Shown here one piece after another: positions 33,086 through 50,690 of a DNA stretch of 64,000 bases (position 1 is its first letter; every line of letters begins with the position of its first letter). The notes beneath the pieces are model-generated. The model ran no database searches, was not told the origin of the DNA, and saw only the letters and a list, made by a program, of their open reading frames with translations. Both the position numbers and the translations under genes were made by a program. The DNA is taken from positions 437,160 to 501,159 of the forward strand of contig OZ245888.1 in NCBI GenBank assembly GCA_965229565.1, read 5' to 3'. Origin of the DNA: Gammaproteobacteria bacterium (GTDB lineage: Bacteria; Pseudomonadota; Gammaproteobacteria; Eutrophobiales; Eutrophobiaceae).

Positions 33086-33161
33086 GGGCCGTTAGCTCAG
33101 CTGGTAGAGCAGTGGATTTTTAATCCATTGGTCGGGCGTTCGAATCGCCCACGGCCCACCA
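33086..33161 (+). tRNA. tRNA-Lys (anticodon TTT)
   Basis: Cloverleaf: GGGCCGT/ACGGCCC acceptor stem, D arm GCTC/GAGC, anticodon arm GTGGA-TTTTTAA-TCCAT, T arm GGGCG-TTCGAAT-CGCCC, encoded CCA; 76 nt. Confidence 0.96.
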
Positions 33162-46322: not shown

Positions 46323-46852
46323 GTCTCATACAGCGGCAGGCCCATCACGCCGCTATAACTTCCCTGTAGTTGCTCGATAAAGACGGCCGCGTAACCCTGT
46401 ATGGCATAGCCACCGGCCTTGCCAATGGGCTCCCCGGATTCAACATAGTTTTCGATCTCCGAGGGTTTGAGTAAACGAAACGTGACAATACTTTCATTCA
46501 TCATTGTTCTTGTGCCATTTTTTATGACCGTAACAGCCGACAGCACGCGGTGTGATTTGCCTGAGAGGCGTGTCAGCATATCGGCGGCCATTGCCGGGCT
46601 CTCGGCCTTGCCAAGGATATCGCCGTCCAGCACGACCGCCGTATCTGCTGCCAGCAGGGGGAACTCATTAGTAACCATGGTACTTCCTGCCTCGGCCTTT
46701 TCCCTGGCAATGCGGCAAACATAGTCCTCGGCCTTTTCTGTACCATTCCAGTTTTCATCGATTTCGACATCAACCAGTTCGAACTCAACGCCTATCTGTG
46801 CCAGTAGCTCGCGACGACGGGGTGAACGTGATGCCAGGTAAACCTTCATCAT
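46292..46852 (-). CDS. maf: Maf nucleotide pyrophosphatase (YhdE-like)
   Basis: YLASRSPRRRELL, AADT, GKAGGYAIQG, GSYSGVMGLP. Confidence 0.93.
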   Translation of the reverse strand: MMKVYLASRSPRRRELLAQIGVEFELVDVEIDENWNGTEKAEDYVCRIAREKAEAGSTMVTNEFPLLAADTAVVLDGDILGKAESPAMAADMLTRLSGKSHRVLSAVTVIKNGTRTMMNESIVTFRLLKPSEIENYVESGEPIGKAGGYAIQGYAAVFIEQLQGSYSGVMGLPLYETYELLLNPPR

Positions 46853-47760
46853 TATTTATCTGATTTTTCGACGCCGCCGAATTCTGTAAGCAGTTCCTTG
46901 ATAAGCTGGTGCAACTGCATACTCATAACAGCAAAATCCTGGTCGAACCGGGTAATGCGATCTGCGTCTTCCGAGTCTGCCTGTTCCTGCACGATTTCCT
47001 CAAAGCGCACGCGCTTGATGGTAAGGTCCTCTTTTAAAATGAAGCGTATGGCATCGCGCCACAGTAGCGCAAGTTGCACGACCCGCTTTCCCGCCTTCAG
47101 GTGACTGGCGATCTCGGCACTCTCCAGTTCCTGGTTTTTACAGCGCACGATATTTTTACTATCGCGCGGGTTCTGCAATTCACACTCGTCATCCAGCGTA
47201 AAGTGTTTGGGCAAACCGTCTTTCAACCAGTGCGTCATGATATTCGCCGCATCACCATGACAGCTCAGTGGCACTACCGGCAAACTGCCCAGCGATGCGC
47301 GCAGGTGTTCCATGAACTCCTCGGCGCGACTGCTGCTGGCCGTATCGATGATCAACAGCTTCTGCTTTTCATCGATATAGGCGTACGTTAACGACGAACG
47401 CGTTAATGCACGTGGCAACAATGTGTGCACCACGTCTTCTTTCAACGTGCGCTTTTCCTTACGATACATCTTGCGTGCCTGGGCCGATTCAAAATCTGCC
47501 ACCTTCTCCTCTACCAGTTCATTCACGGCAGCAGGCGGCAATATTTTTTCCTGTTTACGGGCACAAAGCATACTGAAACCGGCGACCGCATGGACCAGCA
47601 TGTCGCTGTCGCGACCCAGGGGAGAAACCCAGCCAATGCGTGAGAAGTCCATGCTGGCACAGGGTTTAAACGCCTGTTCAGCCAGTGCTGCCTGCAAGGT
47701 GTCGGCTGACAGATCGATGTCCTGAGTGAAGCGATAGATACGAAGATTTTTAAACCACAT
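46852..47760 (-). CDS. rdgC: Recombination-associated protein RdgC
   Basis: MWFKNLRIYR, GWVSPLG, EKILP, LLPRA, LGSLPVVP. Confidence 0.95.
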   Translation of the reverse strand: MWFKNLRIYRFTQDIDLSADTLQAALAEQAFKPCASMDFSRIGWVSPLGRDSDMLVHAVAGFSMLCARKQEKILPPAAVNELVEEKVADFESAQARKMYRKEKRTLKEDVVHTLLPRALTRSSLTYAYIDEKQKLLIIDTASSSRAEEFMEHLRASLGSLPVVPLSCHGDAANIMTHWLKDGLPKHFTLDDECELQNPRDSKNIVRCKNQELESAEIASHLKAGKRVVQLALLWRDAIRFILKEDLTIKRVRFEEIVQEQADSEDADRITRFDQDFAVMSMQLHQLIKELLTEFGGVEKSDK

Positions 47761-47846
47761 AGATAAGCGTGTTGATGAAAAGCGCCGGATTATGGCGTAG
47801 CGATTGTTGTGATAGCAAATGCTATCAATGAAATGGATTTCTCGTG

Positions 47847-47986
47847 TTTTCTTTTTTCTTGGTTTCGCATTGAGCGGCGATTTTCTTTCAGCATGGATTT
47901 CGCCTTTTAGCGGATCGTTTTTTTAGCATTGGTTTCGCCTTTGAGCGGCGAATTTCTTTTAGCATGGATTTCGCCTTTAACGGCGA
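47847..47986. repeat. Four imperfect ~35-bp tandem repeats
   Basis: Consensus TTTCTTTyAGCATkGrTTTCGCCTTTGAGCGGCGA, units ending at 47880, 47917, 47951 and 47986. An inverted copy lies at 48388-48420. Confidence 0.85.
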
Positions 47987-48420
47987 CTGACTTTTCTTCA
48001 AAGAAAAGTCAGCAAAAGAACCTTTGCCTGCTGCCCAGGCCTGCAGCTTCCCTCGTCAACCTCTAACGCTGACGCGTCGCGCATACATTCGTCCATGAAT
48101 GAATGCGCTAAAAATGACGTCCTGTCATTTTTTCGCTAGCGTTATTGGTCGCCTCGGCTGGGCCGCACGGCGAATGATGAATCTCTATATCCCCTTGTGA
48201 TTTGCCGAGGAACGGGTTTATGTCAAGGCTGAGCAACATGGATGTTGCGAAAGCATCGTGAGGACAGGAGTCCTCTGGATGCGTGCCTTGGAAAATAAAG
48301 TTGTGACGAGGATGGAGCGCAGCGACAAATCACCTGGGGTGGTCTTTCTTTTGGTACCTTTTCTTTGACCACGCAAAGAAAAGGTACTCGCCGCTCAAAG
48401 GCGAAATCCATGCTGAAAGA
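47952..48420. repeat. Composite inverted element with two back-to-back structured modules (MITE-like or structured RNA)
   Basis: ~33-bp terminal inverted repeats, each followed by a CTTTTCTT/AAGAAAAG hairpin. Each arm has CCGAGG...GACGAGG and two GGA-loop hairpins. Confidence 0.7.
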
Positions 48421-48460
48421 ATCACGCCAGCAGGCGAAAAGAAAAATCAAACAAAGACTC

Positions 48461-49987
48461 TTAACTCAAAAACAACTTATACGCAGGATTATCCTTTTCC
48501 GCCCAGTACGGCATATCCAGCTTATCGAGGAACTTCTGGAATTCCTGTTGTTCCTCATGTTTCACCTGGAAACCCATGAGTACCCGTCCATAGGCCGCAC
48601 CATGATTGCGGTAATGAAACAGACTGATGTTCCAGCTTTCGCCAAGCTGTGTCAGGAAATGCAGTAATGCGCCCGAACGTTCGGGAAACTCGAAGCGATA
48701 GATTACCTCGTTGTCTGCCTGCGGCGCATGACCACCCACCATGTAGCGAATGTGCATCTTGGCAATGACATCACTGCTGAGATCGGTCACAAGGTAGCCC
48801 TTGTCCTTTAAATGCGCCAACAGCTTTTCCTTTTCTTCCACCCCGTGTTTTAACTGCACACCCGCAAAGACCTGTGCATCATTATCATCCGCGTAGCGAT
48901 AATTAAACTCGGTGATGAGCCTCGCGCCCAGGTCATGACAAAGCCGCCTGAAGCTGCCGGGTCGTTCCGGTATTTGTATCGCTATCAACGCCTCACGGTG
49001 TTCACCCAGTGCCGATAGTTCGGCAATATGGCGCAAACGATCAAAATTGACATTGGCACCACTGAAAATAGCAACCATCTGCTTATCGGTCAGCTTTTCA
49101 CGAGATACATATTGTTTCAGGCCGGCCAATGCCAATGCGCCAGCCGGTTCTGGTATAGAACGTGTGTCTTCAAAGATATCTTTTACCGCTGCACAGATCT
49201 CATCGATACTGACCATCAGCACTTCATCAACCAGTTCCTTGCAAATACGATAGTTTTCCTCGCCAGCCTGCTTTACCGCGGCGCCATCGGCGAAAATGCC
49301 TATCTGTTCCAGGATCACACGTTCACCTGCCTCCAGCGCATGATGCATGCACGGTGCCTCATCAGGCTCAACGCCAATAATCCGGATATCCGGGTACTTG
49401 TCCTTCACATAGGCAGCGATACCGGCAATCAGGCCACCGCCGCCAACCGGCACAAAGATATAATCAGGCCTGGTACTGAGCTGCTCCATTAATTCAACAC
49501 CCACGGTTGCCTGCCCTGCGATCACCAGCGGATGGTCATAAGGTGGCACGTAATGCATATTTTTTTCTTTGGATAATTTTAATGCGTGCTGGTAGGCATC
49601 ATCGTAATTATTGCCGTGTAATATGACCTCGCCCTGCATGCGTTTGACTGCCGCAATCTTTATCTCCGGTGTCGTTTTAGGCATGACGATGATCGCCTTG
49701 ACCTTCATATACATGGCCGCCAGCGCTACACCCTGGGCATGGTTGCCGGCAGAGGCCGCAATGACGCCTGGCCCAATCTCTTCCGGGGTCAGCGCTGCCA
49801 TCATGTTGTAGGCACCGCGCAGCTTATAGGAAAAAACCGGCTGCTGGTCTTCACGTTTTAACCATATCTGGTTATGCAACCGCTCGGTTAATTGTGGCGC
49901 AAAATCGAGATCGGTGCGCTTGGCCACGTCGTAGACCCGGTGACTTGCATCGTCGATCAACTTCTTGTATTCATCAAACATCGGCAT
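48461..49987 (-). CDS. ilvA: Threonine ammonia-lyase, biosynthetic
   Basis: KREDQQPVFSYKLRGAYN, SAGNHAQG, PVGGGGL, regulatory PERPGSF and YRNHGAAYG. Start placed at ATG 49987 (49981 possible). Confidence 0.96.
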   Translation of the reverse strand: MPMFDEYKKLIDDASHRVYDVAKRTDLDFAPQLTERLHNQIWLKREDQQPVFSYKLRGAYNMMAALTPEEIGPGVIAASAGNHAQGVALAAMYMKVKAIIVMPKTTPEIKIAAVKRMQGEVILHGNNYDDAYQHALKLSKEKNMHYVPPYDHPLVIAGQATVGVELMEQLSTRPDYIFVPVGGGGLIAGIAAYVKDKYPDIRIIGVEPDEAPCMHHALEAGERVILEQIGIFADGAAVKQAGEENYRICKELVDEVLMVSIDEICAAVKDIFEDTRSIPEPAGALALAGLKQYVSREKLTDKQMVAIFSGANVNFDRLRHIAELSALGEHREALIAIQIPERPGSFRRLCHDLGARLITEFNYRYADDNDAQVFAGVQLKHGVEEKEKLLAHLKDKGYLVTDLSSDVIAKMHIRYMVGGHAPQADNEVIYRFEFPERSGALLHFLTQLGESWNISLFHYRNHGAAYGRVLMGFQVKHEEQQEFQKFLDKLDMPYWAEKDNPAYKLFLS

Positions 49988-50036
49988 AAGATAACATTTA
50001 ACTATAGCGCGAACATTACTTGTATGAGGTAACGCA

Positions 50037-50690
50037 ATGTCGCAGGACGAAAGAAAAAAGGAAGTAGCCCGGGCTGCCATCAAGTTTATAGAAGACGACA
50101 CCATTGTTGGTGTCGGTACCGGCAGCACCGTCAATTTCTTTATCGAGGAACTGGCCGCTATCAAGGGTCGCATTGAAGGTGCCGTGTCCAGCTCCGAGGC
50201 CAGCGAAAAGCTCCTGAAAGAACATGGCATCCCGGTCGTATCGTTAAACAGCGTTATCGAGATACCTGTTTACGTTGATGGTGCCGACGAGTCCACGCGT
50301 CATCGCTACCTGATCAAGGGCGGTGGCGGGGCGTTGACACGCGAAAAGATCGTGGCAGCAGCCAGTAAAAAATTCGTTTGCATCATCGATGACAGTAAGC
50401 TGGTACCGATGCTGGGCGAATTTCCGCTTCCGGTAGAAGTGATTCCAATGGCGCAAAGCTATGTCGCGAGACAAATCGCCAAGCTCGGCGGCAAGCCGGT
50501 GCTTCGAGACGGATTTACCACCGACAATGGCAACATTATCCTCGATGTGCATAACCTCAAGATTGATAATCCGCCGGAACTGGAGGGGAAACTCAACCAG
50601 ATCGTGGGTGTTGTTACCAACGGGCTATTTGCACGGCGTCCGGCCGATATCGTCCTGATGGCCGGTAAAAACGGCATTGAAACGTTTTAA
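50037..50690 (+). CDS. rpiA: Ribose 5-phosphate isomerase A
   Basis: [31 protein letters not shown]. Confidence 0.97.

Follow-up and report, generated by a model that had tools for sequence, protein, structure and literature searches.

TwoAYGGAY (Rfam RF01731, clan CL00106) is described as probably an RNA and not a cis-regulatory element, with occurrences in gut metagenomes, Gammaproteobacteria and Clostridiales (Weinberg et al., 2010; PMC2864571). The motif has tandem GAs and has been proposed to be a CsrA-sequestering RNA (Gardner and Eldai, 2015; PMC4333381). The main text of a recent preprint describes an extended form with a longer basal stem, extra hairpins, a 3′ pseudoknot and divergent doublets (Li et al., 2026; 10.64898/2026.09.22.753630). 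According to that text 2,164 of 3,166 doublets (68.4%) are divergent with a median gap of 249 bp, repeats are found on both sides of the RNA, and the copy number is very variable; Csr/Rsm sponging and a mobile-element-like expansion are suggested and function is left open. Here we report on a pair of structured modules in the 700-bp spacer between rdgC and ilvA (positions 47761–48460) of a 64,000-nt stretch of DNA, hereafter the window (G000:C1:437160-501159; contig OZ245888.1 of assembly GCA_965229565.1). The window comes from a Gammaproteobacteria bacterium of the Eutrophobiaceae, whose genome is a single contig of 2.71 Mb with 49.3% G+C.

Covariance-model searches show the pair to be a divergent doublet of extended Pseudomonadota-type TwoAYGGAY elements. 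The locus is a diverged member of the family that the Rfam model misses, in the recently described doublet form. Rfam gave no match to either module at the gathering threshold, and at E ≤ 10 the region displays only chance-level microRNA and snoRNA matches. The RF01731 gathering threshold is 43 bits, which is an operational cut-off and not a structural feature, and the model has 168 positions. The left module of the paralogous copy C (L003:1336-1492) gives 40.6 bits over the full model (positions 1–168, E-value = 0.0023), and this match stops before the triple-helix domain discussed below. Homologues in Solimonas (L161, 58.1 and 58.6 bits) and Aeromonas schubertii (L148, 43.5 bits) are above the threshold. 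A model built from the 14 modules of the window genome alone finds the same stretches on the same strands, with 117.7 and 98.5 bits in Solimonas and 118.4 bits in Aeromonas. As in TwoAYGGAY, each module has two adjacent GGA-loop hairpins on a common basal stem, and the basal stem contains tandem G.A pairs. In the window the right module has the loops ATGGAT and AGGA, and the left module has AGGAC and ATGGAC; two of these four are of the A-GGA type and not strict AYGGAY.

The original prediction, made from the letters of the window, had seen twin GGA-loop hairpins and placed them in no named family, but the twin-hairpin core is that of RF01731, clan CL00106. Because a match to a described family was the refuting outcome that the prediction had itself set, its claim to novelty fails. 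Most of what it saw and proposed is already in print. The Rfam search it called for leaves the window copies unmatched, and homologues in Solimonas and Aeromonas pass the RF01731 threshold.

The features of the locus, in window coordinates, are as follows.

46852–47760, minus strand: rdgC (Pfam RdgC, 378 bits).
About 47830–48450, no strand: the whole inserted block (flank hairpin repeats, left module, centre, right module, flank hairpins), delimited against element-free spacers of congeners.
47870–47986, plus strand: tandem 35–36-bp units, each a small hairpin TTCGCC-N6-7-GGCGA(A) and a T-rich run (direct-repeat family D1).
47982–48171, minus strand: left module, TwoAYGGAY-type, 5′ end at the centre and 3′ end outward (covariance model 163.4 bits, E-value = 9.8e-43).
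47987–47998/48001–48012, minus strand: hairpin of the left 3′ domain, CTGACTTTTCTT/AAGAAAAGTCAG (inverted repeat I10).
48014–48020 (top-strand coordinates), minus strand: pyrimidine strand TTCTTTT of the left module, upstream of that hairpin (triple-helix register test).
48080–48107, minus strand: left GGA hairpin 1, CATTC-ATGGAC-GAATG inside GCGCAT/ATGCGC (sequence and alignment).
48110–48132, minus strand: left GGA hairpin 2, AAAAATGAC-AGGAC-GTCATTTTT (sequence and alignment).
48172–48190, no strand: centre between the two 5′ ends, 19 bp here and variable among copies.
48191–48392, plus strand: right module, TwoAYGGAY-type (covariance model 182.4 bits, E-value = 4.9e-48).
Within 48191–48392, plus strand: right outer stem, GTGATTTG/CAAATCAC (sequence).
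48205–48210, plus strand: right CCGAGG, which faces GACGAGG 48305–48311 in the basal stem.
48233–48248, plus strand: right hairpin GCAAC-ATGGAT-GTTGC (sequence, RNAalifold, fold).
48253–48282, plus strand: right hairpin GAGGAC-AGGA-GTCCTC inside GCATC/GATGC (sequence, RNAalifold, fold).
48305–48311, plus strand: right GACGAGG (sequence).
48339–48387, plus strand: right 3′ H-type pseudoknot with predicted triple helix (register test).
48339–48344 with 48367–48372, plus strand: stem S1 of the right module, GTGGTC with GACCAC, covarying in long-loop modules.
48345–48352, plus strand: right third strand, TTTCTTTT (register test).
48354–48367/48374–48387, plus strand: right terminal Watson-Crick hairpin, GTACCTTTTCTTTG/CAAAGAAAAGGTAC, with the purine tract at 48375–48382, followed by TCGCC.
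48388–48404, plus strand: right flank hairpin TCGCC-GCTCAAA-GGCGA; a minus-strand terminator-like site at 48405–48387 faces ilvA.
48461–50230, minus strand: ilvA, threonine dehydratase (PALP and Thr_dehydrat_C).

The element extends beyond the limits first given for it, with small TCGCC-N5-7-GGCGA hairpins flanking both modules and tandem 35–36-bp units on the left. The three tandem units at 47870–47978 resemble REP arrays reported 3′ of TwoAYGGAY RNAs in Pseudomonas fluorescens SBW25 (Li et al., 2026). Elsewhere in the window a tRNA gene (33086–33158) is the sole Rfam match at the gathering threshold.

The stems, loops and motifs listed for both modules in the original prediction are all found in the sequence at the positions given, and its statement that the two modules keep the same order of parts on different stems is borne out by alignment; the left module aligns with the 13 other modules of the genome. 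The basal stem consists of P1a (CCC/GGG) and a covarying 8-bp P1b. CCGAGG then lies opposite (A)CGAGG, with the pairs C-G, C-G, G.A, A.G and G-C, i.e. tandem sheared G.A pairs in the basal stem. In the RNAalifold consensus columns 15-126, 16-125 and 19-122 are paired, and the 19-122 pair covaries from G-C to A-U in 2 of the 14 modules. Above the G.A motif a long variable stem, P2, leads to a junction with the two A(N)GGA-loop hairpins and a small hairpin, P5. The 3′ domain follows the junction, and after it come one or more of the small TCGCC-N5-7-GGCGA hairpins.

Folded as RNA, the right module shows −80.3 kcal/mol against a shuffled mean of −59.2 (z = −4.91) and the left module −82.4 kcal/mol against −58.3 (z = −5.99), and in neither case were any of 200 shuffles as good. 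RNAalifold on the 14 modules of the genome gives 45 pairs, 34 of them with compensatory changes. A set of 77 modules, from the window genome and its relatives, was aligned to the covariance model. Here 89.6% of cells pair compared with 67.6% when shuffled, 55 of 61 pairs vary on both sides, and the covariation score is 0.534 compared with 0.167 (shuffled) and 0.056–0.093 (partners slid); because the alignment was fitted to the model, these figures lean toward structure. Helices 1–2, 11 and 12 of the model have support in this alignment, in agreement with the extended form of the family. In both the 14- and the 77-module alignments the stems covary and the loops and the CCGAG/CGAGG motif are conserved, which supports selection on the single-stranded fold, as had been proposed.

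The strand chosen in the prediction is also favored, with 169 G-U and U-G cells against 50 A-C and C-A cells. The tandem G.A/A.G is conserved, and on the opposite strand it would read C.T/T.C. From the G-U excess and the conserved G.A tandem, therefore, the functional strand runs from the center of the pair outward.

Searches with BLAST and with the covariance model R1, which was built from alignment A2 of the genome's own copies, recover exactly 14 full-length modules in the window genome (R1, E ≤ 1.1e-40), arranged as seven divergent pairs with no solo modules; the only other R1 matches there are two short palindromic matches to the terminal hairpin. Every pair consists of a minus-strand module followed by a plus-strand module, with the 5′ ends facing each other across 6–19 bp. 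The 14 modules are 70–97% identical, and sequence divergence between the arms within a pair is as large as that between arms taken from separate pairs. Pair A, that of the window, and pair B share 90.6% (left) and 97.0% (right) identity over about 500 bp, which suggests that a whole pair was copied. Four pairs are situated between convergent genes, three between tandem genes and none between divergent genes, so that each is downstream of at least one gene.

Among 101 related genomes, the window genome included, R1 finds modules in 32. These comprise, besides the window genome, 26 of the 60 others in its family; outside it, 40 other families of the class were sampled with one genome each, and 5 of them gave modules. 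The search of genome and relatives called for in the prediction was in this way productive. Among the pairs listed in relatives within 3 kb, 27 are divergent, one is tandem and none is convergent; Xanthomonadaceae loci include convergent pairs. An exact 47-nt pattern gave no match in a scan of the genome contig collection. A degenerate pattern for one triple-helix haplotype matched at least 120 stretches, and the list of taxa is consequently a sample biased to that haplotype. Among the matches listed are Dyella, Xanthomonas, Lysobacter, Stenotrophomonas, Pseudoxanthomonas, Aeromonas, Solimonas, Methylobacter, Methylocaldum, Methylophilus and Pseudomonas, as well as metagenome-assembled genomes of Desulfobulbus and Desulfurivibrionaceae. 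R1 matches span the whole model in most of the 72 loci searched among these matches. In complete genomes of E. coli no match to the Aeromonas module was found. Matches in the plasmid collection are unannotated or lie in spacers inside operons.

In G004 and G002, congeners whose genomes are 100% complete, the orthologous ilvA-rdgC spacer measures 58 bp and 14 bp, respectively, and contains no element; in a third congener, G003, it is about 380 bp and unrelated. On the left the shared flank runs as far as GCTATCAAT, and on the right it starts again near CTCTTAAC; both boundaries are approximate, the species being only 70–78% identical. The block of about 620 bp is, on this comparison, a cargo-less insertion relative to G002, G003 and G004, or else has been lost in all three. 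It displays inverted ends and presence/absence polymorphism, and no target-site duplication could be defined since the flanks are only 70–78% identical. The idea of a mobile element, raised in the original prediction, stands insofar as the element is repeat-like (seven pairs) and insertion-polymorphic; as to linked mobility genes, no transposase or recombinase domain was found in the 33 interior open reading frames tested (see below).

A Y1 (IS200/RAYT-like) transposase open reading frame is found at G000:C1:1630200-1630967 with its own inverted CCGGGGACAGTATACTT repeats. It was considered as a mobiliser and rejected, its flank repeats being unrelated to the hairpins of the element. The genome also has two rve-domain genes and no DDE_Tnp_1.

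Weak terminator-like sites are present at 47899–47914, 47934–47952 and 47971–47986, all facing inward; the region has five such sites compared with 1.2 expected. Genome-wide, 15 of 38 matches to the flank-hairpin pattern fall at the seven element loci. The sole promoter-like site in the scan is that of rdgC (47818–47789). Two other candidates were rejected: the AT-rich TTTWAWT found 5′ of modules is too close to the paired 5′ end for a −10 box, and the −35-like ATGACA of some left arms is inside a covarying stem. A T is found at position −1 of the module in 51 of 77.

The 3′ domain has a repeated design. A pyrimidine run, TTTCTTTT in the right module, is followed by a hairpin; the 5′ arm of the hairpin mirrors the run (TTTTCTTT), and the 3′ arm reads AAAGAAAA. 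Where the loop of this hairpin is long, it pairs with a stretch just upstream of the pyrimidine run (GTGGTC/GACCAC), and the arrangement is therefore that of an H-type pseudoknot with loop 1 parallel to the purine strand. The left module of the window carries a short-loop variant without the extra pseudoknot stem. The four core S1 pairs form in 42–44 of 46 long-loop modules and covary.

A register test was done on 71 of the 77 modules (18 haplotypes), six with truncated 3′ domains being dropped. In register, 483 of 497 cells combine a third-strand with a purine-strand letter as T.A or C.G, compared with 222–301 of 496–497 cells when shifted. The position of C/G moves jointly in all three strands in at least four haplotypes (TTTCTTTT/AAAGAAAA, TTCTCTTT/AAGAGAAA, TTTTTCTT/AAAAAGAA and TTTTCTTT/AAAAGAAA). 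This three-way covariation argues for a fold in which the first loop would occupy the major groove of the polypyrimidine/polypurine hairpin, with 7–8 U.A-U and C+.G-C triples. A single module in G005 (L048:1717-1909) displays a T-A inversion in the purine strand, with a G at that place in the third strand, which we take to be a classic G.T-A triple.

In relatives the two 5′ ends are often further apart. Ten of the 27 divergent pairs listed have gaps of 15–194 bp and 17 have gaps of 524–1885 bp. An open reading frame of at least 90 aa is found in 15 of the 17 long gaps, and the reading frames are tightly packed and in either orientation. Pfam was run on 20 interior open reading frames and seven show matches, at 6 of 15 loci: DUF4238, a DpnII/MboI-type nuclease, HNH, T5orf172/MUG113, DUF6151, DUF411 and DUF1304. 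In Aeromonas schubertii the two modules are 4.1 kb apart, between rlmJ and dcuC, and enclose a Septu system (PADLOC, PtuA 539 and PtuB 321 bits) together with other genes. Upstream of its genes the same cargo has a JUMPstart element at L148:2305-2342 (RF01707, 44.1 bits). The interiors in Aeromonas salmonicida and in a Methyloglobulus metagenome-assembled genome contain OLD/AriA/GajA-like ATPases. Recombinase or transposase domains were found in none of the 33 interior open reading frames tested. The space between the two 5′ ends is thus a slot that in relatives contains variable accessory genes, often of defense type.

At the loci of the empty pairs B, C and G, added genes are found in G003 or G004 next to either a pair of modules or one module alone. 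The glutaredoxin-side locus of pair G has a 237-aa open reading frame in G003, and the locus of pair C has one with a nuclease domain in the same genome. At the locus of pair E in G003 a 234-aa open reading frame is situated between a single module and the shared flank gene; this is a candidate for cargo only. The locus of pair B in G004 holds a complete chromosomal integron, with intI (436 bits against TIGR02249) and about 11 cassettes. This integron (L035:1769-2740, L070:300-6050) has small open reading frames on the same strand and ordinary attC sites of 60–70 bp, and one module is found just 3′ of intI. Modules at shared loci in G000, G003 and G004 are not each other's best matches, concerted evolution or re-insertion having erased their orthology, and cargo may therefore have been either gained or lost. 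In the window genome a decayed integron-integrase remnant with stop codons is present at G000:C1:2547664-2547966, in three fragments (TIGR02249 positions 1–36, 31–78 and 290–315). Among the 101 genomes (unpublished G099 included, intI cut-off E ≤ 1e-40) 16 have both modules and intI, 16 modules only, 18 intI only and 51 neither.

The words Hoogsteen, triplex, cargo, cassette and island do not occur in the main text of the preprint of Li et al. The triple helix with three-way covariation and the cargo-slot pattern are both absent from that main text and, as far as we found, not yet described. Literature searches for a described cassette system with such ends returned nothing relevant.

Both loops contain GGA in 65 of the 77 lineage-set modules and in 48 of the 70 that make up the wide set. 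The loops often read ACAGGAUGU or CAUGGAUG, which resemble the CsrA SELEX consensus. The presence of csrA, named in the prediction as a point to be checked, was confirmed, a single copy being found in the window genome; csrA is also present in 30 of the 32 module-bearing genomes.

On balance we lean towards an account in which the TwoAYGGAY doublet acts as a read-through RNA, with a CsrA clamp and a 3′ end protected by a triple helix. The module would act as RNA, read through from a neighboring gene (ilvA here) or from cargo between the modules, and with the divergent arrangement a transcript entering from either side would end in one sense module. One CsrA dimer could be clamped by the pair of GGA loops, which a rigid scaffold would hold about 30 nt apart. 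The triple-helix pseudoknot may block 3′-to-5′ decay and set a stable 3′ end, and the flank hairpins might damp incoming transcription. What is established in this account is the fold and its strand, the family, the insertion and the cargo slot.

Several points weigh against it. The two modules of the window give no RF01731 match even at E ≤ 10, and family membership therefore rests on transitive homology. A crude consensus-based scan showed no sigma-70-like promoter in the element and no outward terminator. Contigs from four metatranscriptome libraries of one study cover the region, and one of 285 nt bridges the center (48109–48393), but the contigs carry no strand, end or level information and are possibly DNA carry-over; as proof of transcription they were rejected. 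The co-occurrence of csrA with modules says little, as csrA is present in 89 of the 101 genomes searched, and no csrA match was obtained in G011, which is 100% complete and has 12 module matches listed. Formally, the opposite DNA strand could form a purine-motif triplex. Lastly, a pair in Pasteurella multocida keeps the scaffold and the triple helix and has no GGA loops, and on a Burkholderia cepacia plasmid (L223:4985-5049, aceF-lpdA spacer) the triple-helix hairpin occurs alone after a short stem, without the TwoAYGGAY core; it follows from these two cases that the 3′ domain has a role independent of CsrA.

An unlikely alternative to the read-through RNA is a fold that acts in DNA. The modules would then be the structured ends of a non-autonomous MITE-like (miniature inverted-repeat transposable element) or MIC-like (mobile insertion cassette) cassette, recognized as folded single strands by a transposase or recombinase whose gene lies elsewhere; protein recognition would then be what the GGA loops and the G.A motif are for. 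The inverted arrangement, in which the sense strand runs from 5′ inside to 3′ at the end of the element, agrees with this, as do the insertion polymorphism, the near-identical copies A and B, the copy number that varies between genomes, the variable cargo with no recombinase or transposase domain among the 33 reading frames, and the lack of a promoter found in the element. T.A-T and C+.G-C triplexes also form in DNA, and G.T is tolerated. However, a target-site duplication could not be delimited, the search for a partner enzyme gave none (the one Y1 transposase-like open reading frame of the genome has unrelated inverted repeats), and the arms of one pair are as different as arms of different pairs. 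In addition, a fold of 200 nt that combines a three-way junction, tandem G.A pairs and a triple helix within a pseudoknot is what one expects of RNA and has no known precedent among transposon ends, and the Rfam curators and two papers treat the element as RNA.

Rather less probable still is an insulator and RNA-end stabiliser for acquired genes, in which inward hairpins stop host transcription, the outward module, with its triple helix, terminates and protects cargo transcripts and CsrA is not involved. The terminator-like hairpins do face inward on both sides, but they are short (5–6 bp) and weak. All seven pairs of the genome are downstream of at least one gene and none is between divergent genes, and cargo in either orientation always has a sense module at its 3′ end; empty pairs such as that of the window, however, have nothing to insulate. 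The solitary triple-helix hairpin of Burkholderia and the missing GGA loops of Pasteurella would fit such a function, which leaves unexplained the two GGA loops kept in 65 of 77 and 48 of 70 modules.

That the modules are unusual integron attC-like sites served by IntI is highly improbable: one module is directly 3′ of intI in G004 at the locus orthologous to pair B, the cargo is compact and cassette-like, and modules and intI co-occur in 16 genomes, but the integron link was rejected because the G004 array uses ordinary 60–70-bp attC and holds no module and cargo-bearing pairs occur in G003 and G018 (100% complete) with no intI match at E ≤ 1e-40, besides which the window genome has only the decayed intI remnant, no R′′/R′ core sites are visible in the modules, and just one intI gene is seen beside a module, the modules being dispersed.

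TwoAYGGAY has been an orphan RNA family since 2010, and the window adds a diverged lineage beyond the Rfam model. The covariation in three strands of the 3′ domain, which argues for 7–8 base triples, makes function testable. To our knowledge, runs of 7–8 base triples are rare in bacterial RNAs. The slot between paired modules, with its variable and often defense genes, is a second handle on function. We put forward, tentatively and with some doubt, the wider proposal that the doublets are the two boundaries of a widespread Pseudomonadota gene slot that lacks a recombinase of its own and houses anti-phage systems, further accessory genes and even an integron between the 5′ ends, coupled to CsrA and yielding triplex-capped, stabilised RNAs. 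If the gene-slot reading is true, a 16-year-old orphan family would gain a genomic role and bacterial RNA biology a long major-groove triplex. If the CsrA link is true, a global post-transcriptional regulator would be connected with horizontally acquired defense cassettes; should the modules act as DNA instead, they would be a new kind of cassette boundary.

Compared with known systems, the module shares with the CsrB and CsrC as well as the RsmX, RsmY and RsmZ sponges (clan CL00106) GGA motifs that are displayed in loops at a spacing that suits a CsrA dimer. Unlike these sponges it has two GGA sites only and no promoter or intrinsic terminator of its own that the crude scan could find, and it is multi-copy, insertion-polymorphic and arranged in inverted pairs, and it carries a triple helix and much additional scaffold. 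In Xanthomonas campestris, RsmU is an RNA of 77–117 nt that binds RsmA, has GGA motifs and arises by processing of the comEA 3′ UTR (untranslated region); it was reported to have no Rfam homologue (PMC7694677). As in the route proposed here for the module, the RNA comes out of an mRNA 3′ UTR and not from a promoter of its own. RsmU might be a TwoAYGGAY-type element.

Major-groove triple helices are found in telomerase RNA, in the SAM-II and preQ1-II pseudoknots and in the MALAT1 and PAN ENE 3′-end stabilisers. In common with these RNAs, the predicted fold of the module lays a third strand of pyrimidines parallel to the purine strand in a Watson-Crick helix and places the first loop of an H-type pseudoknot in the major groove. 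The U.A-U run is broken by C+.G-C, as in MALAT1. The purine strand of the module is, however, internal and not a 3′ poly(A)-like tail, and the module differs from all the named triplex RNAs in its bacterial host, its repeat-element context and in having no known ligand or protein partner.

Module pairs resemble integron cassettes and mobile insertion cassettes in their compact, variable and often defense-type cargo without a recombinase of its own, and resemble attC sites and mobile-cassette ends in boundaries that are conserved in structure and variable in sequence. They differ from cassettes and MICs in that no integrase or transposase link was found, and from attC in having two inverted boundary modules of about 200 nt instead of one 60–140-nt attC, dispersed and not arrayed. 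REP-like hairpin arrays beside the RNA are a feature in common with REP/REPIN systems. A further likeness is to the extended TwoAYGGAY elements, as presented in the main text of the preprint of Li et al., which have the elongated basal stem, extra hairpins, 3′ pseudoknot and divergent doublets seen here. That survey is centered on Pseudomonas, with a median gap of 249 bp and 5′ GMTBT(T) repeat arrays, whereas here the gaps are 6–19 bp and no such arrays fit. The Rfam TwoAYGGAY model ends before the 3′ triple-helix domain, and the modules reported here carry that domain.

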